This document shows positions 1-43,395 of a stretch of 64,000 nucleotides of DNA, piece after piece (position 1 is the first letter of the stretch; every line of letters starts with the position of its first letter). The DNA is from an uncultured Gammaproteobacteria bacterium (GTDB lineage Bacteria > Pseudomonadota > Gammaproteobacteria > Magnimaribacterales > D2472). Position numbers and translations under genes: made by a program. The stretch lies in NCBI GenBank assembly GCA_964523375.1, contig CAZFYG010000003.1:35471-99470 (forward strand), given 5' to 3'. The notes beneath the pieces are model-generated. The model saw nothing but the letters and a program-made list of their open reading frames with translations. It did not search any database and was not told the DNA's origin.

Positions 1-187
1 GATTATCCATTGAATTTGTGCTGGCAGCATTTAGATCAATTATATGAAGATAATTAAAACCTTCATTCTTAAAATAGTTTGATTGTCTCAGTGGGGAAGA
101 TTCATACTTAGTAACTTTACCAAAATCACCTTTTAGCAACCTTACACAGCTACCATCAAGAATATCTATTGCAGGTATTATTTTCAT
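1..187 (-). CDS. hisA: HisA (ProFAR isomerase), 5' part, runs off the window edge; not in the ORF track
   Basis: Manual translation MKIIPAIDILDGSCVRLLKGDFGKVTKY...LHIIDLN matches the HisA N-terminus; ATG overlaps the hisH TGA (ATGA). Confidence 0.93.
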   Translation of the reverse strand, partial: MKIIPAIDILDGSCVRLLKGDFGKVTKYESSPLRQSNYFKNEGFNYLHIIDLNAASTNSMDN

Positions 188-756
188 GAGTCATTAATAA
201 AAAAATTTATAAAATTTATGCCAGCCTGTGATGATTTCTCAGGATGAAATTGACAACCATATAAATTATTTTTTTTTACAACTGCTGCAATAGTATTTAC
301 ATAATCTGTTGAAGCTATTTCATTCTCAGGGCTCATAACACCGTAGCTATTTGCATAATAATAGTAGCCACAAATCTCTTTATATTTTGAATTTACATAA
401 TTCCAACCCATATGTGGAATAGGGTGCTCATAGGTACTTTTTAACTTTTCTACTTTGCCTTTCAGTAAACCCAAGCAGCATGTATCTCCCTCTTGAGAAT
501 GTTCAAATAAAACTTGCATACCAACACAAATACCAAGAATGGGCTTATTAAAGCTCTTTAAGAGAACATCCAAGCTATTTTCATTTAGTTTTTTCATAAC
601 AATATCAGAAGCCCCAACACCTGGAATGATAAGTTTATCTGCTCTTTCAAGCTCGCATGCATCATTAGATATTATAGAATCAATCCCAAGTCTATTAAGC
701 GAAAATTTAATTGAATTCAAGTTTGCTCCACCGCAGTCAAGTATGCCTATTTTCAT
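184..756 (-). CDS. hisH: Imidazole glycerol phosphate synthase glutaminase subunit
   Basis: Class I glutamine amidotransferase motifs PGVG, GICVGMQ and QFHPEKS; his operon context. Confidence 0.97.
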   Translation of the reverse strand: MKIGILDCGGANLNSIKFSLNRLGIDSIISNDACELERADKLIIPGVGASDIVMKKLNENSLDVLLKSFNKPILGICVGMQVLFEHSQEGDTCCLGLLKGKVEKLKSTYEHPIPHMGWNYVNSKYKEICGYYYYANSYGVMSPENEIASTDYVNTIAAVVKKNNLYGCQFHPEKSSQAGINFINFFINDS

Positions 757-2618
757 ATATGACCTTTTGTAGAATTGATTGCTGAATCATCAATTAATAG
801 AGATGACGCGAGACACCTAGCAAAGCTTTTAAAGGTTGATTCAATAACATGATGGCTATTCTTGCCACTTGTGGTTATATGGCAATTAAAACCCAAGGTA
901 TGGACGAATGAAATAAAAAAATGCTCAAACATTTCAGTTGGAAAATCCCCAACATAAGGTTTCATTTTTGGAGCCGAGAAAGTTAAATTAGGTCTTGATG
1001 CCATATCTATTGAAACAACAGATTTTGCTTCATCCATAACCAGCGTTTCAATAGAAGAATATCTTTTGATATTATTTCTATTAGGCAATGCTTTTTTGAA
1101 TGCTTCTCCAAGTGTAATCGCTACATCTTCGATTGTATGATGCTCGTCAATCTCTAAATCACCAACTGCCTCTATCATAAAATCAAACTTACCATGCTTT
1201 GAAAATTGCTCTAGCATGTGATCAAAAAAACTTAACCCAGTATTAATTGAAAATGAACCTGAGCCATCAATATTAATATTCGTATAAATTTTTGTTTCAT
1301 TTGTAAATCTTGAGACAAAAGAGCTCCTATGCTCATCTTTACAATCAATAATCTCTTTTCTAACCTTTACAGCATTGCTGTGTGCATCTAGACCTTCTGC
1401 TTCTGCAAGAGTAATCACGTGATTTGAGAGCTCATTAAAACCCTCTATTGACGAGGTTTGGACTGTTATAGATTTTGTAAAATCTTTTACTGACAAACCT
1501 GAATAAGATTTAGCAAAACCATTTGTAGGAAGTGTGTGATTTGAACCAGACGCATAATCTCCAAAGGATTCAGGGCTAAGCTCGCCCAAGAATATTGACC
1601 CAGCATTGAGTATTTTCGGTAGAAGAGATGTTAAATTTGTATCAGGTATTATTAAATGCTCGGGTGCATTCTCATTTGAAAAATTAATAAGATCATCTAT
1701 ATTTTCAAAATTAATTAATACCAAATTATTTATACTTTCTTTTAGTATGTTCTGTCTAGCTAGGCCCTTGAGTTGTTTTTTAACTTCAACTTTCACATTC
1801 TCTAAAAGATGTTTATTTAGACTCAAAAGTACAGCTCTTGAATCAGAGCCATGCTCTAGTTGAGAGAGAAGATCTGCAGCTATAATTCTAGTATTTTTAA
1901 TTTCATTCGATATTATAAAAACTTCACTTGGTCCTGCGGGCATATCTATACATACATCTGCAGAAACTATTTTTTTTGCTGCTGTAACGTATAAATTTCC
2001 TGGACCAAAAATCTTATCAACTTTTGCTATGGACTCTGTTCCATTTGCTAAAGCAAAAATTGCTTGTGAACCTCCAATCTTATAAATATTTGTAATATTT
2101 AATATATAACATATCCATAATATAGCCTGATTTATTGACTCATCTTCATTTGGTGGAGTGCATACATATATATTTTTACAACCTGCAACTTTTGCAGGAA
2201 TAGCCTGCATTAACAATGAGCTAAAAAGAGGGGCAGAGCCTCCAGGGATGTACAGACCAACTCTATCTATAGGTCTAATTTCAGACCATAATGAAATTCC
2301 TCTAGTTGTATCTTCTGAAGAAAGTTTAAGTGATTGATATTGTCTTTTTGCATAACTTTCAATATTAGCTTTTGCAATTAAAATAGAAGATTTAAGACCC
2401 TCATCAAGATTACGATCTGCTTTTAAAATTTCTTCTTTAGACACTTTAAATTCAAGAGGTGAACTTAGTCCTATAAGCTCATTTACTTTTCTTAGCCCTT
2501 TATCTCCTTCTTGTTTTACAAGTGACTCATAATTTAAAACTTTCGAAAACTCATCTTTAGGTAATTCCTGAAGAGTCTTTTTTAAGACAAATTTTTTGTC
2601 ATAATTAACAATATTCAT
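753..2618 (-). CDS. hisD/hisB: Fusion of histidinol dehydrogenase (aa ~1-420) and imidazoleglycerol-phosphate dehydratase (aa ~431-621)
   Basis: HisD motifs GLYIPGG, FGPGN, DMPAGPSEV, SQLEHG, APEHL, GDYASGSNH; IGPD motifs FFDHML, DEHHTIED, NSHHVIE; one uninterrupted frame. Confidence 0.93.
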   Translation of the reverse strand: MNIVNYDKKFVLKKTLQELPKDEFSKVLNYESLVKQEGDKGLRKVNELIGLSSPLEFKVSKEEILKADRNLDEGLKSSILIAKANIESYAKRQYQSLKLSSEDTTRGISLWSEIRPIDRVGLYIPGGSAPLFSSLLMQAIPAKVAGCKNIYVCTPPNEDESINQAILWICYILNITNIYKIGGSQAIFALANGTESIAKVDKIFGPGNLYVTAAKKIVSADVCIDMPAGPSEVFIISNEIKNTRIIAADLLSQLEHGSDSRAVLLSLNKHLLENVKVEVKKQLKGLARQNILKESINNLVLINFENIDDLINFSNENAPEHLIIPDTNLTSLLPKILNAGSIFLGELSPESFGDYASGSNHTLPTNGFAKSYSGLSVKDFTKSITVQTSSIEGFNELSNHVITLAEAEGLDAHSNAVKVRKEIIDCKDEHRSSFVSRFTNETKIYTNINIDGSGSFSINTGLSFFDHMLEQFSKHGKFDFMIEAVGDLEIDEHHTIEDVAITLGEAFKKALPNRNNIKRYSSIETLVMDEAKSVVSIDMASRPNLTFSAPKMKPYVGDFPTEMFEHFFISFVHTLGFNCHITTSGKNSHHVIESTFKSFARCLASSLLIDDSAINSTKGHI

Positions 2619-3484
2619 TAGCTTAGTACCTTTTCCACTGGTAGCACCAATATAGATGAAGCCCCATTTGCTTTAAGTTCTTCCATAGTCCCCCAAAAAA
2701 CTGGTTCTTGGCATAAAGAATGAATGGCAACCTTGTCTTTATTTTCAAGAGGAATTATCGTTGGAGACTCAGAGCCAGGCAATAATTTGCATATCTTATC
2801 AACATTGCCGAGTGGGGCATTCAACATTACATACTTACTTTCTCTTGCATTAATAACACCCTTTATTCTATTTGTTAATGTATCAGCTAATTTAAGTTTA
2901 CTTTTCTTAATGTTGTTATTTGATATTAAAACAGCCTCTGAATGCATTATGGTGTCTAGTTCTTTTAAATTATTTGCTTCAAGAGTTGCGCCTGAAGATA
3001 CTAAATCACATATACAGTCACATATTCCTATGTGCGGCATCAATTCAACAGACCCATGGATGTCTGAAACATTTGCATTTATAAAATTTTTATTTAGGTA
3101 ATTTTGAACAATGTTTGGATATGATGTTGCAATTTTCATATCTTTTAAGGATTCAAAATTTACTCCCTCAGGAATGGCAAAAGAAAGCCTGCATTTTGAA
3201 AAACCAAGTTTTAACAAAGTACTTATTTGGTTTAAATTTTTTGAAAGTGTTTTTTCAAGTAATTCATTTTGACCAATTATTGCTAGATCGGCGTCACCGT
3301 TATTAACTAAATTAGGGATGTCATCATCACGAACAAATAATATATCTACAGGAAAAGAATTAGATTTTATTAAAAGCTTACTGTCTCTTGTTTGAAATTT
3401 AACGCCAGATTTTTTTAGTACTTCCTGGCTTTCATTAGAAAGTCTTCCACTTTTTTGCAAAGCAATTGTTAATCTATCTTTCAT
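2618..3484 (-). CDS. hisG: ATP phosphoribosyltransferase, long form
   Basis: IALQKSGRL, VRDDDIP, ICDLVSSGATLEANNL plus C-terminal regulatory domain (LLPGSESPTI). Confidence 0.97.
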   Translation of the reverse strand: MKDRLTIALQKSGRLSNESQEVLKKSGVKFQTRDSKLLIKSNSFPVDILFVRDDDIPNLVNNGDADLAIIGQNELLEKTLSKNLNQISTLLKLGFSKCRLSFAIPEGVNFESLKDMKIATSYPNIVQNYLNKNFINANVSDIHGSVELMPHIGICDCICDLVSSGATLEANNLKELDTIMHSEAVLISNNNIKKSKLKLADTLTNRIKGVINARESKYVMLNAPLGNVDKICKLLPGSESPTIIPLENKDKVAIHSLCQEPVFWGTMEELKANGASSILVLPVEKVLS

Positions 3485-3753
3485 TATTTTATTCTCTTTA
3501 TAATTGTTTTGTAGCCATCGTTTTGCTCATTCGAAAGGAATCTTGCAACACGAGTAACTGTTGTGGTGCTTGTCTTTAGCTTGTCTGCAATTTCTCTATA
3601 AGAGAACTCATTTTTGCTAAGTGTTTGAGCAACAGACCATCTTTCATTTAAAGCTTTTAGTTCTGCTGGAGTACATAGGTCTGTTAAAAATTTGCTAACT
3701 TCTTTTTCGTTTTTTAAAAGAAGTAATGCATTCGATAAGGGTAGTGTTTTCAT
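3484..3753 (-). CDS. TrpR-like YerC/YecD family regulator heading the his operon
   Basis: FLTDLCTPAELKALNERWSVAQ...SYREIADKLKTSTTTVTRVARFL is the YerC/TrpR helix-turn-helix signature. Confidence 0.9.
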   Translation of the reverse strand: MKTLPLSNALLLLKNEKEVSKFLTDLCTPAELKALNERWSVAQTLSKNEFSYREIADKLKTSTTTVTRVARFLSNEQNDGYKTIIKRIK

Positions 3754-3760
3754 GCGTGAT

Positions 3761-3789
3761 AGTGTATTACCATGCTAACACGATGTAAA
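3761..3789 (-). promoter_or_regulatory. Putative sigma70 promoter of the yerC-his operon, probably leaderless
   Basis: Minus strand TTTACA(3789-3784)-N17-TACACT(3766-3761), 7 nt before the ATG at 3753; no Shine-Dalgarno. Confidence 0.6.
3764..3781. promoter_or_regulatory. Candidate operator for the YerC/TrpR-like repressor
   Basis: Imperfect palindrome GTATTACCATGCTAACAC (7 of 9 pairs) overlapping the promoter spacer and -10. Confidence 0.45.
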
Positions 3790-5574: not shown

Positions 5575-6411
5575 CTATGTGTCTTCGCTTATGTGAAGAA
5601 TAACTCCAAATCGAGGGTGATCAAAATAGTGAACGTCATTATGAAAAACTCTTCTTTTCTCATCTATATATATTTTTACCTCAACATCACTTTTTTTATC
5701 ATAAATGGTTTGAGAATCATCAATGTTTAATTTTGCGTAATCATTTTTTTCATTTAATGTTATTTTTATATCTTGATTCTTATTTTCAACATTTAATTGT
5801 CTATAGCTAAAAGAGTCTATGTAGGTTTCTGTGAAGTCTGATTTGAATAGTTTTTTGTTAGGTAGTGTTCCAAGATAGGCTTTCAAGTCCACATGAAGAA
5901 ACCTCCCTTTATATAATTTTATTAAAAAACCATATTTTTTATTTTGATTTTCATATTCTAAAAATTTTGAAAAATTTTCTGATGGAATATTTTGTTTCCA
6001 TGATAAAGATTCTAAGTGCTTGTAATTATTTGAGTTAATCAGGCTAGTTTCATACTTCTTTAATATAGTCAGATTTGATTTTTTTCGAAACCATTCCTTT
6101 GGATTTGATGTTTTTTTATCTACTGATTCTTTATTTAAAACATCTCTATTAATATTTAAATCAGCAAATAACTTAGTGAAAAACGATTCCTTATTTTTTA
6201 TATTGAATGAGTTCTTATTATAAAAAAGATCGACTTCTCTGAATTTTAATACTTCATCTACTTCAATCTTAAATTCTTTCTCAAAAATTTCTTTAGTTTC
6301 AACATTTTTATTCTCAAAAATAATTAACTCTATGTTGTATGACATAGATAGATTTGAGCCTACTGACTGAAGCGATAGAAATAAAATAAGAATTTTTTTA
6401 AAATAATTCAT
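5575..6411 (-). CDS. CsiV-like periplasmic protein
   Basis: N-terminal signal peptide, YNIELIIFE start, C-terminal RRV...HYFDHPRFGVIL motif; typical position downstream of mfd. Confidence 0.7.
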   Translation of the reverse strand: MNYFKKILILFLSLQSVGSNLSMSYNIELIIFENKNVETKEIFEKEFKIEVDEVLKFREVDLFYNKNSFNIKNKESFFTKLFADLNINRDVLNKESVDKKTSNPKEWFRKKSNLTILKKYETSLINSNNYKHLESLSWKQNIPSENFSKFLEYENQNKKYGFLIKLYKGRFLHVDLKAYLGTLPNKKLFKSDFTETYIDSFSYRQLNVENKNQDIKITLNEKNDYAKLNIDDSQTIYDKKSDVEVKIYIDEKRRVFHNDVHYFDHPRFGVILHISEDT

Positions 6412-9400
6412 TTAATAATTTTATTATTTTATCTCTTCGAAGCGACCCATTGGGCTCATTTATTTTTATGTTGAACCTGTTTTTATCATCAAATGAATAA
6501 ATTGATTGATTTGTTTTTATAAGTTCCAGCAATTTAAGTATTGTTTCGTCACTGATGGCTTCGCTTAGCTGGATAGAGGTGATTTCATTAGTTGATGTTA
6601 ATTTAGGCATGCTTAGATCTGCTATTAATTGGTTAATCGTAGCATTCTTTAGTAAGTTGCTTGTTTCACGAGGGATTCTGCCACAAGTATCTTCAAGAAA
6701 AAATTTAATTTTTTGAATATCTTTATGAGAATCTACATCATAAATAAGCTTATAAATTTTTAACCTTTCAATAGTCGATGGCATATAAATATTACTTATA
6801 AAGGCTGAATCAAAGAAATTTACATCAGTTTTTATAATCTCTTTTTTTGTGTCATTTTTTTCAAGTTTTATAGCAGACTTGAGCATCGAAAGGTATAGTG
6901 AAAGACCAATAGACGCAATATGACCGCTTTGTTTATCACCAAGGATTTCTCCTGAACCTCGAAGCTCCATATCTTCTTGTGCTATGAAATAACCTGAGCC
7001 TAACTTTGATAACCTGACTATAGACTCTAACCTTTCTGATGCTAGCTTTGGTATGACCACATCCGGTATTAGGAAGTAACAGTAACCTTGTTTATTAGAT
7101 CTTCCTATTCTTCCCCTAAGCTGATGTAGTTGTGCTAATCCAAGCTTATGAGAATCTTCAATAATCATTGTATTTGCATTTGGTATATCAAGTCCCATTT
7201 CAACAATTGTTGTGCAAATAAGAATATCTACTTCACCAGAACTAAAGCCATCCATTACACTAGCAATATCTTTTTTATTTAATTGACCATGAGCAATTCC
7301 AATTTTGATTCCAGGTATCAATGTTTGTAATGTGATTTTTAAACCATGCATTTTGCTTATATTGTTCTGCAAAATAAAACACTGTCCTCCTCTTTGTATT
7401 TCACGCGATATTGATTCTTTTAAAATTGTATTATCAGATATTTTAAGAAATGATTTTATAGAAAGCCTGTTAACTGGTGGACTGTTTAAAAAAGAGAAGT
7501 CTTTTAGTCCAGAAAATACAAAATTCATTGTTCTTGGTATTGGTGTTGCGGATAAATAAAGTATATGAATATTATCTTGCTTAGATTTGATTAGATCCTT
7601 TTGCTTTATGCCAAACCTATGCTCTTCGTCAACAACCAAAAGACCTGTATTTGAATAATCTATATCTTGATTAAAAATAGCATGAGTACAAACAAGAATA
7701 TCAATTTCTTTATTATTATATTTTTCAACTAATTCTTTTCTATTTTTTAAGCTAATGTGTCTATTTAATAAAGATACGCTTATTGGTGACTCTTTAAATC
7801 TGTCAGTAAATGATTCAAGGTGCTGTTTAGCAAGAATTGTACTTGGACAAAGCACTATTGCTTGTTTTTCAGAGTAAACACTTATAAATGCGGCTCTCAT
7901 TGCAACTTCAGTTTTACCAAAACCCACGTCTCCACAAATAAGCCTATTCATAGGCTTTATTAAACTTAAATCTTTACGAATTGAATCTATAGCAATTAGC
8001 TGATCTTTTGTCTCGTTGTAAGGAAAATATGAATTAAATTTATTAAAATCATCATCACTAACTTTAAGGCTGGGTGATGATGATCTAGCTCTTCTAGATT
8101 CTATATCTAATATCTCTGCGGCATGATCATGCGCTTGCTTTAAAGCCTTTTCTTTCTTTTTAGTCCATTTGTTCGAGGAAATTGAATCGAGCTGAATATC
8201 TGTTAAGAGTCTAGATTTATGATATTTTGAGAGCAAGTTAATATTGCGCAAAGGAACATACAAATTTTCATTTTCAATATACCGTATTTTTACGTATTCA
8301 TTCGTAACATTATTTGTTTCAACAACTTCTAGTCCGTCATAAACTCCAAGTCCATATTTCTCATGTACTACTAAATCATTTTTATTAAAGGGATTAAGAT
8401 CAATAATATCTGTCTCAGAGGTTTCCTGCACATCATTTACAATTTCTTTTTCTATATTAGGTTCTATGTGCACTACTAAAATTTCATTACGATAGGCTAG
8501 AGGTCTTATTCTTGGGTGTTTTGCAAAATAAACACCATCATTTAAATCATTTAGTTGGCCGTCCAGCTCTTTTAAAGGGATATTACTGTCTTCTTGTAGC
8601 TTATTAATGCTAGATGCAATATTAGAAAGTAGGATAACTTTATTGAAATTAGTTAGTGACTTCGATAGATTGGTATTTAAATTTTTTAGATCAAAGCTAT
8701 AGTCACTATAATTATTATCTATTTTAAAGACAGGTAAATTTTCTATGAAATTATTTACTTCTGAATCATTAAAAAAAAGATCCTTCGGGTTTATTAATGG
8801 CCTAGAGATGTCAATGTCCTCATCATTAAATCGTTGATTAATATATTCAAAATGTGATGAGCTAGTCAGTTCTGTTTTTAAAAATTCATATTCAGAAAAT
8901 ATATCCTTAAATGCCTGAGTAGTCTCAAAAAAGAATGGTAAGTAAATTTCAAGCCCCTCGGTCTCTTTACCATTGGATACTTTGTTAAAAATAGTGCAGT
9001 CTCTTTCATCTTTTTTATCAAAATATTTCCTCCATTTTGATTTAAATAGCTCTATGGAAGGAGTATTTCTTGGTATCAACGAACCATTGCTTAAATTAAA
9101 TGTTTTGATAGAAGAGAGTGATGATTGTGTTTTTTCATCAAAGAACCTTATTGATTCTATTGTTGTATCAAAGAATTCAATTCTAATTGGTGATTTATAT
9201 ATCGGTGTATAAACGTCAACAATCCCACCTCTATGTGCGTACTCATTTGTATACTCAACTTTATCTTTCCTCTTAAAATTATTTGAATCAAGTATCTTTA
9301 AAAAATCATTTATGTTGATTTGATCGTTTTCTGAGAAAGTTGAAAGTGATTTGAAATGAGATATTGGTGGTAATTTCTCATATAAATTTTTAGTTGTTGT

Positions 9401-12084: not shown

Positions 12085-13587
12085 ATGACTAATCAAAAAG
12101 ATCCTAATTTTATTTCAACTGCTCGACAAGATAGAATTCTTCCTGAAGATACATTCGCAGATTGGAAGTGGAGAGAGGCCCTGGCAGAGCTTATGGTGCC
12201 TGTCATAGGGACTTTATATAGAAATGGTATCAATACACTAATTTACGGCAAATCTTTAGTTAATCAATCACCTGTTGAGTTAATGAGGGCCCACAGGTTT
12301 GCTAGGCAATCAGATAATAATGAGCTTAGCGAGTTTGAAACTTATCCTATTCTTCTTCATCTTGCCTCTTTGCAGCTTAATGATTGCGAAGTTGATATAG
12401 GAGAGCTAGCAGTAAAATGTCCATTTTTTGAAAGATTAAAAGAAGATCAAACAGGGCTTGAAACATACGTAAATGAGCAACTCAAGGGTGTTATTGGCTT
12501 TGATTCATCAAGGCCATCAGCTCCAACTAATATAGTCTTGTATGGTTTTGGTAGAGTTGGAAGGCTTATAGCAAGGATGCTTGTTCAGTCAACTGGACCT
12601 GGAAATTATTTTAGACTAAGTGCAATTGTTATTAGAAAAGCTTCAGATGATGATATTTACAAAAGAGCAAGTTTACTGCAAAGAGATTCAGTTCATGGTG
12701 CCTTTAATGGAACAGTTCGTGTGGATGAGGCTGATAGCTCATTGGTTATAAATGGTAACCCTGTAAAAATAATATATGCAAACAGCCCAAGTGATGTTGT
12801 TTATAATGACCATGATATTTTAAATCCTATTGTTATAGACAATACTGGAGCATGGAGAGATGAAGAAGGCCTTTCTAAACATTTAAAATCTGGAGCAAAA
12901 AAAGTAATTTTAACCGCACCTGCAAAAGGAAATATTAAGAATATTGTTAATGGTGTTAATAACAATATATTAGACAAAAATGATGAAATAATATCTGCTG
13001 CATCATGCACAACCAATGCAATCGTTCCTGTTTTAGATATTCTAAATAAGCAATATGGTATTGAAGGCGGTCACATAGAAACAGTTCATTCATACACAAA
13101 TGACCAAAACCTTATTGATAATTTTCATAAAGGAGATAGGCGAGGACGAAGTGCGGCACTTAATATGGTCATCACATCAACCGGAGCTGTAAAAGCTGTC
13201 TCAAAAGCACTTCCTGAGCTTGATGGTAAATTAACTGGAAATGCAATTAGAGTACCTACACCAAATGTAAGTCTTGCAATTTTATCTCTTACACTCAATA
13301 AAGAGACATCAAAAGAATCATTAAATAACTACCTTAGATCAATGGCTTTTCACTCTTCATATAGAGAAATACTTGGTTTTGTAAACTCATCTGAAGTGGT
13401 TTCAACAGACTTTTACTCTTCGCCTTTTGCAAGCATTATTGATTCTCAAGCAACGATAGTAAGTGGTAAGAGAATCACTTTATATTGTTGGTATGATAAT
13501 GAGTATGGTTATTCTAAGCAGGTTGCCTCATTAACTAAAAAAATTGCTGGTGTTAATCTTGTAAGATTACCTATACCAATTGACTAA
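12085..13587 (+). CDS. gap: Glyceraldehyde-3-phosphate dehydrogenase, long form with N-terminal extension
   Basis: LYGFGRVGR, SAASCTTN (catalytic Cys), WYDNEYGY; about 145 aa extension as in Pseudomonas-type long GAPDH. Confidence 0.93.
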   Translation: MTNQKDPNFISTARQDRILPEDTFADWKWREALAELMVPVIGTLYRNGINTLIYGKSLVNQSPVELMRAHRFARQSDNNELSEFETYPILLHLASLQLNDCEVDIGELAVKCPFFERLKEDQTGLETYVNEQLKGVIGFDSSRPSAPTNIVLYGFGRVGRLIARMLVQSTGPGNYFRLSAIVIRKASDDDIYKRASLLQRDSVHGAFNGTVRVDEADSSLVINGNPVKIIYANSPSDVVYNDHDILNPIVIDNTGAWRDEEGLSKHLKSGAKKVILTAPAKGNIKNIVNGVNNNILDKNDEIISAASCTTNAIVPVLDILNKQYGIEGGHIETVHSYTNDQNLIDNFHKGDRRGRSAALNMVITSTGAVKAVSKALPELDGKLTGNAIRVPTPNVSLAILSLTLNKETSKESLNNYLRSMAFHSSYREILGFVNSSEVVSTDFYSSPFASIIDSQATIVSGKRITLYCWYDNEYGYSKQVASLTKKIAGVNLVRLPIPID

Positions 13588-13665: not shown

Positions 13666-14973
13666 GTGATTTTAATTAAAAAAGGATTGAATCTCCCAAT
13701 ATCTGGTCATCCTGATCCAGTTGTTTCTGATACACCAACTATTCACAAAGCAGCAATTTTATCGAATGATTTTATTGGCATGAAACCCACTATGCTTGTT
13801 AAAGAAGGTGAAAAGGTAAAGTTAGGGCAAAAAATTATTGAAGATAAGAAAAATCCAGGTGTTTTTTTTACATCTCCATGTGGAGGAGAAGTGTCATCCA
13901 TAAACAGAGGTGATAAAAGAAAGTTTTTATCTATAGAGTTTGATATTGATGCTGAAGAGGAGTCCGTTTTATTTGACACTAACCAGGACCCAAAAACCCT
14001 GCTAATTGAATCAGGTTTATTCAATGCATTTAGAACAAGACCGTTCAATAGAACTCCAAAGGTTGAAGATAAGCCCGATAGGGTATTTATAAATGCATGT
14101 GATACTAATCCACTTGCTGTTAGCCCAAAAGATATAATACAACTTAATGAAGCAGACTTTAATTCTGGTGTTGCTTTTATATCAAGTTTATTTGATTTTG
14201 ATATAGATCTTGCTTTTGAAGATGACCATAGAGATTATACATTTCAAAATGTTAACTCAACCCAATTTAAAGGCCCTCATCCTGCAGGCTTAGCTAGTAC
14301 GCATATTAATGCTATATATCCTGTAAATCTTCATAGAAAAGTTTGGACCATTAATTATCAAGAGGTTATATCTATTGGTTATTTAGTTAATAATGGAAAG
14401 CTAAGAACTCATAAAAATATTTCTTTAGCTGGAGAGTCTGTTTTTAATCCTTCAATTGTTTCTGCAAGAATTGGCTCGAATATTGACCAGCTTTGTGCTG
14501 GTAAGGTAAATAGTAACGCAAGAGTTATTTCAGGTTCTGTTCTTTTCGGCCATGATGCTATAGATGCAATGTCATACTTAGGTTTTTATGACAACCAAGT
14601 TACAGCATTACCTAATCATACCGATGACGTATTTTTAAACTGGGTTATGCCTGGAAAAAACATTCATTCTAAACTTAATGTTTTCTTATCTGCTTTCAAA
14701 AAACCAGCTAAATTTAATTTTAATACAGGAATTAATGGAGGTAACAGGGCGATAGTACCTGTCGGCTCTTATGAGGAAATTATCCCACATGATATTTTGA
14801 TGACCCAGTTACTTAAGGCTCTAGTTGTTGGTGATGTTGAGGTGGCCGCAGAGCTTGGTATGTTTGAATTAACAGCTGAAGATTTGGCATTGGCGACATA
14901 TGTATGCCCTAGTAAATATGATTATTGTTCAATTCTTATGGATAACTTAAACAAGGTATACGAAGAGCTATGA
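13666..14973 (+). CDS. nqrA: Na+-translocating NADH:quinone reductase subunit A (GTG start)
   Basis: IKKGLNLPISG, GMKPTMLVKEGEKV, GPHPAG, YVCPSKYDY. Confidence 0.96.
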   Translation: MILIKKGLNLPISGHPDPVVSDTPTIHKAAILSNDFIGMKPTMLVKEGEKVKLGQKIIEDKKNPGVFFTSPCGGEVSSINRGDKRKFLSIEFDIDAEEESVLFDTNQDPKTLLIESGLFNAFRTRPFNRTPKVEDKPDRVFINACDTNPLAVSPKDIIQLNEADFNSGVAFISSLFDFDIDLAFEDDHRDYTFQNVNSTQFKGPHPAGLASTHINAIYPVNLHRKVWTINYQEVISIGYLVNNGKLRTHKNISLAGESVFNPSIVSARIGSNIDQLCAGKVNSNARVISGSVLFGHDAIDAMSYLGFYDNQVTALPNHTDDVFLNWVMPGKNIHSKLNVFLSAFKKPAKFNFNTGINGGNRAIVPVGSYEEIIPHDILMTQLLKALVVGDVEVAAELGMFELTAEDLALATYVCPSKYDYCSILMDNLNKVYEEL

Positions 14974-16196
14974 AGTTTCTAAGAACAAGTATTGATAATA
15001 TTAAACCTAATTTTATTGGTGAGGGTAAGTATGCAAAATGGTTCCCTTTATTTGATGCTTTTGAAAATTTTGTGTTTAACACAAAAAAATTAACAAAAAA
15101 TCCAGTTCATGTAAGAGATTCAGTCGATATACAAAAAATAATGGTAACTGTTTGGCTGGCAGCATTTCCAGCTATGTTCTTTGGCATGTATAACCTAGGT
15201 GATTATTCTTTAAATTATTTAAATTTAATTGGTCAGCAAAATACTGGTGACTGGCATCATGTATTTGTAAATATTATTGGCTATGACCATACGAGTTTTA
15301 TTGCTAAATTATGGTTTGGTGCATGTTATTTCCTGCCTATTTATATAACAGTCTTTGTAGTAGGTATTGGCTGGGAAGCTTTATTTGCAATTGTTAGGAA
15401 GCATGAAATTAATGAAGGTGCCTTTGTATCAACTATTCTTTTCTCACTAAGCTGCCCTCCAGATTTACCATTATGGCAAGCAGCAATGGGCATAACCTTT
15501 GGTTTGGTTATTGGCAAGGAGATATTTGGAGGTACTGGTAAGAATTTCTTAAATCCAGCTTTAACAGGGAGAGCTTTTTTATACTTTGCTTATCCTGCGC
15601 AAATATCAGGAGATAAAGTATGGATAGCTGGTCTGGCTGATAACAATATTATTCCAGAAGGATACAGTGGTGCTACTGCTCTTGGTGTTGCATCAACTGA
15701 CGGAATGGAAGGTATATATAATAATTTCTCTTGGATGGATTCATTTTTAGGATTCATACCTGGTTCGGTTGGTGAGACATCTGTAATTGCTATCGGTATT
15801 GGTCTAATAATCCTACTTCTCACAAAAGTAGCTTCCTACAGAATTATTTTAGGAACCCTTGTTGGTATGATTTTAATGTCAACAATTTTAAATATTGTTG
15901 GCTCAGAAACAAACCCAATGTTTTATGTACCATGGTATTGGCATTTAGTTATTGGCAGCTTTGCATTTGGTCTTGTTTTTATGGCCACGGAACCTGTTTC
16001 AGGCTCAGGTACAAATACTGGAAGATGGATATACGGTCTTGTAATTGGAATTACTGTTGTGTTGATTAGGGTTGTAAATCCAGCTTTTCCAGAAGGTATG
16101 ATGCTAGCAATACTTTTTGCAAACCTTCTTGCTCCTGTTATAGATCATCTTGTTGTGATGAGTAATATTAAGAAAAGGAGAGCTCGACTATCATGA
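14970..16196 (+). CDS. nqrB: Na+-NQR subunit B
   Basis: HVRDSVD, KEIFGGTGKNFLNPAL, FMN-attachment motif SGATAL, MATEPVS. Confidence 0.97.
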   Translation: MKFLRTSIDNIKPNFIGEGKYAKWFPLFDAFENFVFNTKKLTKNPVHVRDSVDIQKIMVTVWLAAFPAMFFGMYNLGDYSLNYLNLIGQQNTGDWHHVFVNIIGYDHTSFIAKLWFGACYFLPIYITVFVVGIGWEALFAIVRKHEINEGAFVSTILFSLSCPPDLPLWQAAMGITFGLVIGKEIFGGTGKNFLNPALTGRAFLYFAYPAQISGDKVWIAGLADNNIIPEGYSGATALGVASTDGMEGIYNNFSWMDSFLGFIPGSVGETSVIAIGIGLIILLLTKVASYRIILGTLVGMILMSTILNIVGSETNPMFYVPWYWHLVIGSFAFGLVFMATEPVSGSGTNTGRWIYGLVIGITVVLIRVVNPAFPEGMMLAILFANLLAPVIDHLVVMSNIKKRRARLS

Positions 16197-42510: not shown

Positions 42511-43395
42511 CTAGAGGTTGAGATAGAGTTTCTTGAGACGTATATTCATGGGACCTGGTTGATCTGAGTTACCTATAGACCTTCCATCAATATTAATAAC
42601 GTGTCTCAATGAACCAAGCGTACCAGTAATAAAAGCCTCATCCGCTGAGTAAACGTCAACAAGGGAAAAATTCTTCTCATAAACAGGTATATTATTTTCT
42701 TTACATACATGAATTACTTTTTTTCTAGTTATTCCATTCATACAATAATCACCCGAGCTCGTAAAGACCTCACCATTTTTTATAATAAAAAAATTACATG
42801 AATTAGTAGTATTTACAAAACCATGAGGATCAAGCATCAATGCCTCATCGGCTCCCATTTTTTTTGCTTGAATGCAGGCAAGTATACAATTTAATTTAGA
42901 ATGGCTATTTAACTTTGGGTCCTGACTCATTGGCAAGCCTCTAACCTGAGGGACTGTGGCTAATTTAATACCATCATTGGATTTTGCATCATCAGAATGC
43001 TCCAAGATAATAACCAAACTAGGACCATCTTTTGACAAATCAGGTTGCTGAAAAGGCTTTACTTTTTCACCTCTCGTAACCATAAGTCTTGCATGCGCAT
43101 TATCAACCATTTTGTTTGCTACTCTAGTTTCCTCTAAGGCACCAATAACTTCACTTTTTGACATTGATAGGTTTATATCTATTGCTTTTAGACCCTCAAA
43201 CAAACGATCAATGTGTTCATCTAAAAAAATCCAATTACCATCAACAAGCCTTAACCCCTCCCATATACCATCACCCATTAAGAAACCGCTATCATAAACA
43301 GATATTTTTGCATCTTGTCTTTTATACAAAGAACCATTTATGTAAATTAAGATGTCTTTATTTTTATTTAAATGTGATTGGATGTGATTAGCCAT
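42511..43395 (-). CDS. Class IV (fold-type IV) PLP aminotransferase, BCAT/D-AAT-like
   Basis: SVYDSGFLMGDGIWEG, DPKLNSHSK, EALMLD, GITR, ADEAFITGT. Confidence 0.9.
   Translation of the reverse strand: MANHIQSHLNKNKDILIYINGSLYKRQDAKISVYDSGFLMGDGIWEGLRLVDGNWIFLDEHIDRLFEGLKAIDINLSMSKSEVIGALEETRVANKMVDNAHARLMVTRGEKVKPFQQPDLSKDGPSLVIILEHSDDAKSNDGIKLATVPQVRGLPMSQDPKLNSHSKLNCILACIQAKKMGADEALMLDPHGFVNTTNSCNFFIIKNGEVFTSSGDYCMNGITRKKVIHVCKENNIPVYEKNFSLVDVYSADEAFITGTLGSLRHVINIDGRSIGNSDQPGPMNIRLKKLYLNL

Follow-up and report, generated by a model that had tools for sequence, protein, structure and literature searches.

A HisD-IGPD gene fusion in the histidine operon of SAR86 bacteria

Introduction

Histidine biosynthesis is a textbook system for the way in which gene fusion shapes pathways, and the his fusions catalogued in repeated surveys are hisNB, hisIE, hisHF/HIS7 and HIS4. 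We have analyzed a stretch of 64,000 nucleotides from an uncultured gammaproteobacterium of the SAR86 cluster (GenBank assembly GCA_964523375.1, contig CAZFYG010000003.1, positions 35,471 to 99,470 of the forward strand), hereafter the window, in which the coding region of histidinol dehydrogenase (HisD) is joined in frame to that of imidazoleglycerol-phosphate dehydratase (IGPD). The explanation that best accounts for the observations, and that we hold with good confidence, is a bifunctional HisD::IGPD enzyme of SAR86 histidine biosynthesis, with the origin and the assembly proposed below. The component enzymes and their chemistry are ordinary, and the fusion is a real, conserved and apparently undescribed variant of the multifunctional histidine enzymes. 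It lies within a his operon on the minus strand (window 1-3789) with the order hisR-hisG-hisD::IGPD-hisH-hisA-hisF-hisIE.

HisD and IGPD share a single open reading frame

The fused open reading frame (ORF) and its parts are the following.

753-2618, minus strand: HisD::IGPD fusion, a single ATG-started ORF of 621 amino acids (aa), 68.7 kDa
1359-2618, minus strand: HisD domain, aa 1-420 (PF00815, TIGR00069, catalytic residues, Foldseek, substitution rates)
1329-1358, minus strand: linker KEIIDCKDEH, aa 421-430 (coil in the AlphaFold2 model; variable in SAR86)
753-1328, minus strand: IGPD domain, aa 431-621 plus the stop codon (PF00475, HisB models of NCBIfam, Foldseek)

A first-pass annotation of the window, made from its letters alone, had proposed this fusion with the same boundaries, the same linker and both HHxxE motifs, and the ORF, Pfam and NCBIfam analyses recovered it exactly: R420 is encoded by codon 1361-1359, and the codon of R431 begins at 1328. 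That annotation had also claimed that neither a stop codon nor a start codon for hisB exists at the junction. Indeed, no stop codon was found across the HisD/IGPD junction, and no in-frame ATG, GTG or TTG is present between aa 402 and 467 of the window ORF. The N-terminal part matched PF00815 (Histidinol_dh) at aa 33-420 (E 1e-143, 479.7 bits with a cut-off of 27, profile positions 21-410 of 411) and, in NCBIfam, TIGR00069 (hisD) with 462.7 bits vs a cut-off of 243.8. The C-terminal part matched PF00475 (IGPD) at aa 460-603 (E 7e-52, 175.9 bits, profile positions 1-144 of 144), and the HisB models of NCBIfam span aa 430-621. Model NF003937 aligned with the IGPD half alone (profile positions 153-354); no HAD domain was detected in the fusion protein by Pfam, nor were HisI or HisE domains.

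The residues required for both activities are in place. All eight zinc-binding and catalytic residues of the HisD half (Q253, H256, E320, H321, D354, H361, E408 and H413) match those of Escherichia coli HisD (Q259, H262, E326, H327, D360, H367, E414 and H419, respectively). In the IGPD half both HHxxE motifs are intact (H493-H494-x-x-E497 and H589-H590-x-x-E593), the Mn ligands H467, H493, H494, E497, H566, H589, H590 and E593 are kept, and D491 is also present. Across 50 fusion proteins the key residues of the two halves were invariant or nearly so. The sulfopropanediol dehydrogenase HpsN, a paralogue of HisD, was considered as the identity of the first half and excluded by sequence identity (42-44% to solved HisD structures vs 25-28% to HpsN), by the TIGR00069 score above cut-off and by the his operon setting.

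The AlphaFold2 model of the monomer, with a predicted local distance difference test (pLDDT) value of 88.7, showed two well-folded domains and a coil at aa 424-431, with a pLDDT of about 69 in the linker. When compared by Foldseek, the N-terminal part gave template modelling (TM) scores of 0.92 to 6an0 and 0.90 to 1kae, both HisD structures, and the C-terminal part 0.94 to the IGPD structures 2f1d and 7oj5. No solved structure chain spanning HisD and IGPD was found, either by fold or by sequence. With the residues of both active sites retained, the fusion protein presumably catalyzes step 6 (IGPD) and steps 9-10 (HisD) of the pathway.

The fused gene is genuine and conserved in SAR86

The identical 621-aa protein was indexed in 124 blocks of a public assembly collection, and in the 24 contigs inspected, which stem from different JGI and ENA samples, the fusion gene differed from that of the window by 0-2 nt. 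The best 120 homologues all carried both Pfam domains and were 620-625 aa long, save one entry of 587 aa. The junction is present in many independent assemblies, and the SAR86 relatives retain the fusion rather than separate genes. In the comparison with L095 (88% amino-acid identity), the ratio of nonsynonymous to synonymous substitution rates (dN/dS) was 0.09 for HisD and 0.06 for IGPD, and dN was 0.32 in the linker vs 0.05-0.07 in both domains. By this measure both halves are under strong purifying selection, with their catalytic residues retained, and the linker appears effectively free of sequence constraint. Because the exact protein recurs in 124 assembly blocks, chance or artefact is excluded. 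The fusion is a genuine gene. That it results from an error of sequencing or assembly, or is a pseudogene in decay, has a negligible probability, in view of the identical ORF in many independent assemblies, its conservation between species, the dN/dS below 0.1 in both domains and the fully intact catalytic residues. One protein of 416 aa with a SAR86-like HisD (P0130) was considered as an unfused gene and rejected: its C-terminus diverges just before the Zn-ligand helix, and the protein probably stems from a copy of the fusion gene that has suffered a frameshift or a truncation.

In a scan of species-representative genomes, the full-length fusion was found in four SAR86-cluster genomes (76, 58, 57 and 55% identity), one of which is labelled SAR86B, and the order hisG-hisD::IGPD-hisH-hisA-hisF-hisIE was common to all four species. 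The SAR86 linker measures 10-12 aa and is variable in sequence, and the reading frame across it is always open; no internal start codon near the junction is conserved across SAR86. The G+C content is 33% in the window and 31-34% at the SAR86 loci. In neighbor-joining (NJ) trees the SAR86 fusions formed one clade, which in the case of the IGPD domain had a bootstrap support of 97%. Judged from these sequence comparisons, the fusion is old in SAR86 and ancestral to a large part of it. According to passages of Dupont et al. 2012, the His genes are absent in SAR86A at the syntenic site and the operon is carried by SAR86B and D; the passages of that paper on histidine and auxotrophy do not mention a fusion. 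The supplements of the SAR86 isolate paper hold no histidine-module data.

Organization and putative regulation of the his operon

The other elements of the operon in the window, listed from its upstream end, are the following.

3761-3789, minus strand: promoter-like site TTTACA-17-TACACT, overlapping a 20-bp imperfect palindrome at 3763-3782 (promoter scan)
3484-3753, minus strand: hisR-like repressor gene of the TrpR/YerC family, first gene of the operon (Pfam Trp_repressor, E 2e-23; TIGR02531 YerC/YecD, 60.6 bits)
2618-3484, minus strand: hisG, long form with HisG and HisG_C domains (Pfam, NCBIfam; 48% identity to E. coli HisG)
184-756, minus strand: hisH, glutamine amidotransferase subunit of the IGP synthase (TIGR01855, 182 bits; tblastn with E. 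coli HisH)
1-187, minus strand: 5′ part of hisA, which continues beyond the window (tblastn with E. coli HisA, match at 23-181)

Adjacent genes of the operon overlap by 1-4 nt (TAATG or ATGA). The stop codon of the hisR-like gene overlaps the hisG start by 1 nt, that of hisG overlaps the hisD start (TAATG), and that of IGPD overlaps the hisH start (ATGA). In contigs L096-L100, which carry the identical fusion, hisA-hisF-hisIE are followed by a convergent gene that ends the operon. This convergent ORF (L096 14500-15831, minus strand, 442-443 aa; the same gene in L002 at 14500-15828) has no confident Pfam family and only a weak match to GH16_XgeA, and it is kept between SAR86 relatives.

In proteobacterial his operons hisR is the first gene (PMC9413887), and a hisR-like gene overlaps the hisG start likewise in L002, L004, L005, L095 and L082. 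By comparing the upstream regions, a palindrome of the form GTGTTAGC-N4-TAATACAC was detected. Its copy in the window, CGTGTTAGCATGGTAATACA at 3763-3782, is located between promoter-like -35 (TTTACA) and -10 (TACACT) hexamers; it is unique in the window and was absent from all 100 shuffles. In L095, L002 and L004 the palindrome is also kept upstream of hisR, and the unrelated, GC-rich L082 has it there in the form TGTGTTAGCGCGCTAATACG. It resembles the proteobacterial HisR motif, a 20-bp palindrome of the TGTAnTA...TACA type (PMC9413887); with the motif as printed in that paper, no match was found upstream of hisR with up to 3 mismatches, and the matches in the window were at chance level. The palindrome at 3763-3782 is a candidate HisR operator, and the arrangement suggests that the SAR86 his operon is autoregulated and under repressor control. 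An Rfam scan of the window revealed no his leader or attenuator and no other RNA family.

No genes for steps 7 and 8 in or near the operon

In the first-pass annotation hisC was reported to be absent from the operon. This proved right, and the absence extends to the whole 64-kb window, in which no HisC was found by tblastn with E. coli HisC, by hidden Markov models (HMMs) or by Pfam. Custom HMMs of HisC, built from 75 sequences, and of HisN, built from 73 HisNB sequences, gave no match among the stop-to-stop ORFs of the window or of loci L002-L007. Pfam analysis of about 45 window ORFs detected no HisC-like gene and no phosphatase of the HAD, PHP or IMPase families. Moreover, neither HisC nor a HAD-type HisN was found in the 10-kb flanks of the fusion loci of the four SAR86 species or of the Rhodothermales and Bacteroidota fusion loci, and neither HisC nor a phosphatase was identified by Pfam among the genes downstream of hisIE in L002 or in the flanks of the contigs with the identical gene. 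The sole aminotransferase of the window, a class IV enzyme at 42511-43395, was rejected, its fold type being the wrong one for HisC.

Because hisC and the phosphatase gene were not located in the SAR86 sequence scanned, the completeness of the pathway rests on the argument from conservation. We infer that the histidinol-phosphate aminotransferase and the histidinol-phosphatase (HolPase) are encoded elsewhere in the SAR86 genome. More radically, SAR86 might lack a dedicated hisC and HolPase altogether and depend on promiscuous enzymes for steps 7 and 8. In his operons without HisN from other organisms, described in the next section, non-homologous phosphatases accompany the fusion, namely a PHP-family enzyme with fusion P0124 and an IMPase-like one with the triple fusion P0123.

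The same fusion and related ones in other lineages

A search of 1.84 billion cluster representatives yielded further HisD-IGPD proteins with 34-55% identity. Those from outside SAR86 are 34-44% identical to the window protein, have the same domain order and catalytic residues, and for the most part likewise lie between hisG and hisH in the operon.

Rhodocaloribacter sp. (WP_457652919.1), a Rhodothermales metagenome-assembled genome (MAG) and a Bacteroidota MAG: hisG-hisD::B-hisH context
P0124 (L085): hisG-hisD::B-(toxin-antitoxin insert)-hisH-A-F-PHP-hisIE
P0125 (60% GC): hisR-hisG-hisD::B-hisH-A-F-IE
P0126: Bacillus-type hisZ-hisG(short)-hisD::B operon
Bacillota MAG (MBE3575607.1) and Clostridia MAG (HHY39262.1): HisD-IGPD fusions

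In L085 the insert between hisD::IGPD and hisH is an MqsA-like antitoxin pair (2994-3603), and a PHP-family phosphatase gene (5811-6668) is situated between hisF and hisIE.

The distance from the Zn-ligand His of HisD to the RxTxET motif of IGPD is 24-26 residues in SAR86 and 28, 28, 30, 45, 44 and 63 residues elsewhere, and the sequences in between are unrelated. For most of the non-SAR86 fusions the closest relative is an unfused protein of another lineage; thus, the Rhodocaloribacter protein shares 64% and 74% identity with unfused proteins of Bacteroidota and Calditrichota vs 44% with SAR86. P0124 groups with the E. coli and Pasteurella HisNB proteins (85% bootstrap). Because the linkers differ by lineage and the nearest relatives are unfused, the comparison points to several independent origins of the fusion, at least five.

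Related architectures were also found. P0123 (L084 331-3336) is a HisD-HisC-IGPD triple fusion of 1001 aa, followed by hisH-A-F-IE; HisN is absent, and the operon ends with an Inositol_P (IMPase-like) gene (L084 6046-6885), which is probably a non-HAD histidinol-phosphatase. Many representatives of about 800 aa (780-810), including P0132-P0134 and P0137, appeared in the same search; P0132 (793 aa), the one subjected to a Pfam scan, proved to be a HisD-HisC fusion, an architecture absent from the his-fusion reviews examined. A divergent HisD-IGPD fusion of 651 aa, P0176 (L087 217-2172, on a contig of 38% GC), is located outside any his operon, next to genes for an Fe-alcohol dehydrogenase, AcnX, an arginase and a urocanase. 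Several metal and catalytic positions are substituted in its HisD half (Q253E, D354N and H361A) and in its IGPD half (D491K, H493M and H566N), and the protein is probably a paralogue with another, possibly catabolic, function.

The named database entries of the fusion are all labelled "histidinol dehydrogenase" alone. On a 78,775-bp Rhodocaloribacter contig, both a 629-aa fusion (P0122) and a 210-aa 'HisB' (P0287) are entered at NCBI for one locus, so that annotation pipelines handle these fusions inconsistently.

Comparison with known histidine fusions

No HisD-IGPD fusion and no SAR86 hisC was found in the searchable full-text literature, outside which most subscription journals lie, and the his-fusion reviews examined name hisNB, hisIE, hisHF/HIS7 and HIS4 alone, with no hisD-IGPD. 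The 'hisBd' of a Roseburia paper, considered as a possible fusion, is merely a name for IGPD. Hence, the novelty suggested at first reading stands in part: the fusion is undescribed in the histidine-fusion literature searched, but it is present in several lineages and in public databases, and domain-architecture databases almost certainly list the HisD-IGPD combination already.

The nearest parallel in architecture is HisNB of E. coli and Salmonella, in which IGPD also bears another his enzyme at its N-terminus, non-consecutive steps are joined, and the gene occupies the corresponding place in a compact operon, immediately before hisH. In the window, however, the partner is HisD, a dimeric NAD/Zn dehydrogenase, instead of a HAD-type phosphatase, and hisC is gone as well. 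Fungal HIS4 (HisI-HisE-HisD) and the Acanthamoeba polypeptide with seven activities likewise place HisD in a multifunctional chain that joins non-consecutive steps, but there HisD is C-terminal, its partners are HisIE, HisA, HisF, HisH or HisG and never IGPD, and the organisms are eukaryotic. The Acanthamoeba IGPD is separate from the seven-activity protein, whereas in the window HisD is N-terminal, the fusion is bacterial and hisIE is a separate gene. The joining of non-consecutive steps, pointed out when the window was first annotated, is correct but less exceptional than it was made to seem: such steps are also combined in E. coli HisNB (steps 6 and 8) and in yeast HIS4. The HisD-HisC and P0123 fusions resemble the SAR86 one in the loss of a stop codon within overlapped hisD-hisC-hisB operons, and P0123 also in being without HisN; they differ in that the aminotransferase is retained (in P0123 between HisD and IGPD), whereas the SAR86 fusion has none.

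Origin of the fusion

The SAR86 gene order is the hisGDC[NB]HAF[IE] order of E. coli and Bacteroidota except that hisC and the HisN portion of hisB are missing. We favor, with some reserve, an origin by one deletion that removed hisC together with the HisN half of hisNB, as the first-pass annotation had suggested. In this model a single deletion of about 1.5 kb, with its endpoints at the 3′ ends of hisD and of the hisN domain, would have occurred in a compact operon of the hisGDC[NB]HAF[IE] type. The IGPD half of hisNB has no start codon of its own, and only in-frame deletions to hisD would have kept IGPD translated; the outcome would then be a fusion because this half needs an in-frame upstream hisD for its translation. 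The fusion would then have come about as a side effect of the gene loss that accompanies genome streamlining, and need not be an adaptation. The long-form hisG, the fused hisIE and the hisR-first operon, as in Proteobacteria, are consistent with the deletion model. In an NJ tree the SAR86 IGPDs grouped with the IGPDs of HisNB proteins (NB-type), apart from the monofunctional IGPDs of Acinetobacter and Halomonas (bootstrap 33-48%). Outside SAR86, each SAR86 domain is closest to unfused proteins of Bacteroidota, at about 50% identity, and the other fusions are at 40-44%. The compact hisNB operon is regarded as gammaproteobacterial and horizontally spread to Bacteroidetes (Fani et al. 2007, PMC1963479), a transfer that would explain why Bacteroidota are the nearest neighbours of the SAR86 domains.

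Several observations weigh against the proposed enzyme and its origin by deletion. The NB-type nesting of the SAR86 IGPD has a low bootstrap (33-48%, NJ only). Its identity is alike to the monofunctional IGPD of Acinetobacter (45%) and to the NB-type ones of Parabacteroides (47%) and E. coli (43%); raw identity, at 42-47% to both classes, was discarded as uninformative for deciding between NB-type and monofunctional ancestry. In the linker no trace of hisC or hisN could be recognized, and hisC and the histidinol-phosphatase gene were not located within the 64-kb window and the 10-kb flanks of five SAR86 relatives. In addition, an in-frame ATG is situated close to the natural start of IGPD in one SAR86 species (L005).

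The fusion could also have been generated by read-through, i.e., by loss of the hisD stop codon between an already adjacent hisD and a monofunctional hisB, as in the Bacillus-type order hisZGDBHAFI. This route clearly occurs: the P0126 fusion lies within a hisZ-hisG(short)-hisD::B-hisH operon, Priestia has adjacent unfused hisD and hisB genes in a Bacillus-type operon, and the Firmicutes-type fusions were clearly made by hisD-hisB read-through. The SAR86 junction, with the full HisD tail directly against the very start of IGPD, fits it too, as does the equal similarity of the SAR86 IGPD to monofunctional and NB-type IGPDs. For SAR86 itself we nevertheless find read-through doubtful, given that the operon has a long hisG, no hisZ and a leading hisR, that hisD-hisB adjacency without hisC is not a known arrangement in Proteobacteria, that the monofunctional hisB of Acinetobacter, Rhizobium and Sphingomonas opens a separate hisBHAF unit, and that the IGPD tree puts SAR86, if weakly, with the NB-type sequences.

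Alternatively, the gene in its fused form, or the operon as a whole, might have reached SAR86 by horizontal transfer from another lineage, an explanation that we judge improbable. The closest relatives of the SAR86 domains are the unfused Bacteroidota proteins (~50%) and not the other fusions (40-44%), and P0125 (60% GC) stands apart from SAR86 in both trees and differs in the length and sequence of the linker. Three points speak for a transfer, namely that P0125 has the order hisR-hisG-hisD::B-hisHAF-IE and a similar palindrome upstream of hisR, that his operons are known to move horizontally (Fani et al. 2007, PMC1963479) and that, in the passages of Dupont et al. 2012 cited above, the operon of SAR86B and D is absent at the syntenic site of SAR86A.

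A probable single polypeptide and its predicted assembly

Instead of acting within the fusion, IGPD might also, or mainly, be made separately from an internal translation start, which would leave the fusion functionally minor. Scattered in-frame GTG, TTG or ATG codons do exist near the junction in some species (e.g., the ATG at aa 434 of L005), and the Rhodocaloribacter locus has 629-aa and 210-aa products at NCBI. However, the window ORF is without a start codon at aa 402-467, L003 has none in the junction region, none is conserved in SAR86, and across the rapidly evolving linker the frame is uninterrupted in every lineage, so that we consider a separate IGPD very improbable. Direct channelling between the two domains of the bifunctional protein is not expected, because steps 6 and 9-10 are non-consecutive.

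As to the quaternary structure, an IGPD cage decorated with HisD dimers had been suggested in the first-pass annotation. The IGPD part would build the usual octahedral 24-mer, with the HisD parts located outside and paired as 12 dimers on its two-fold axes. Because an octahedral particle has 12 two-fold axes, 12 external HisD dimers would be compatible with its symmetry. IGPD is a Mn-dependent 24-mer of 432 symmetry with the N-terminal sheet on the outer surface (PMC10978614), and HisD is a domain-swapped dimer (PMC7284861). An N-terminal partner on IGPD is sterically conceivable because this sheet is external in the solved 24-mers, and E. coli HisNB offers a precedent for such a partner. The computed mass is 24 x 68.7 kDa = 1.65 MDa. 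We regard the chances of a ~1.65 MDa IGPD cage with 12 external HisD dimers as evenly balanced; such an assembly depends on whether some 10 residues of linker are enough to bridge the required distance.

It is possible, and to us rather unlikely, that the fusion is adaptive, in that a particle of ~1.65 MDa with 1:1 stoichiometry might scaffold the aminotransferase and the phosphatase into a histidine metabolon. If this adaptive reading were true, the repeated independent appearance of the fusion in bacterial lineages would reflect selection.

Significance

SAR86, the host, is among the most abundant surface-ocean bacteria, and the fusion is fixed there and recurs in other phyla. With the label "histidinol dehydrogenase", name-based reconstructions can record IGPD as absent, and inferences of histidine auxotrophy in SAR86 could be biased as a result. 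The protein is a natural test case for the way in which a dimeric enzyme could be mounted on a 24-mer cage. The mechanism suggested by its proposed origin is that, in operons with translational coupling, deletions may persist only where they create an in-frame fusion.

Apart from the his operon, the window contains at 12085-13587 (plus strand) a 500-aa homologue of glyceraldehyde-3-phosphate dehydrogenase whose Pfam domains start at residue 149; the ~148 N-terminal residues, without a family match, may be an unusual extension or the consequence of a mis-set start.

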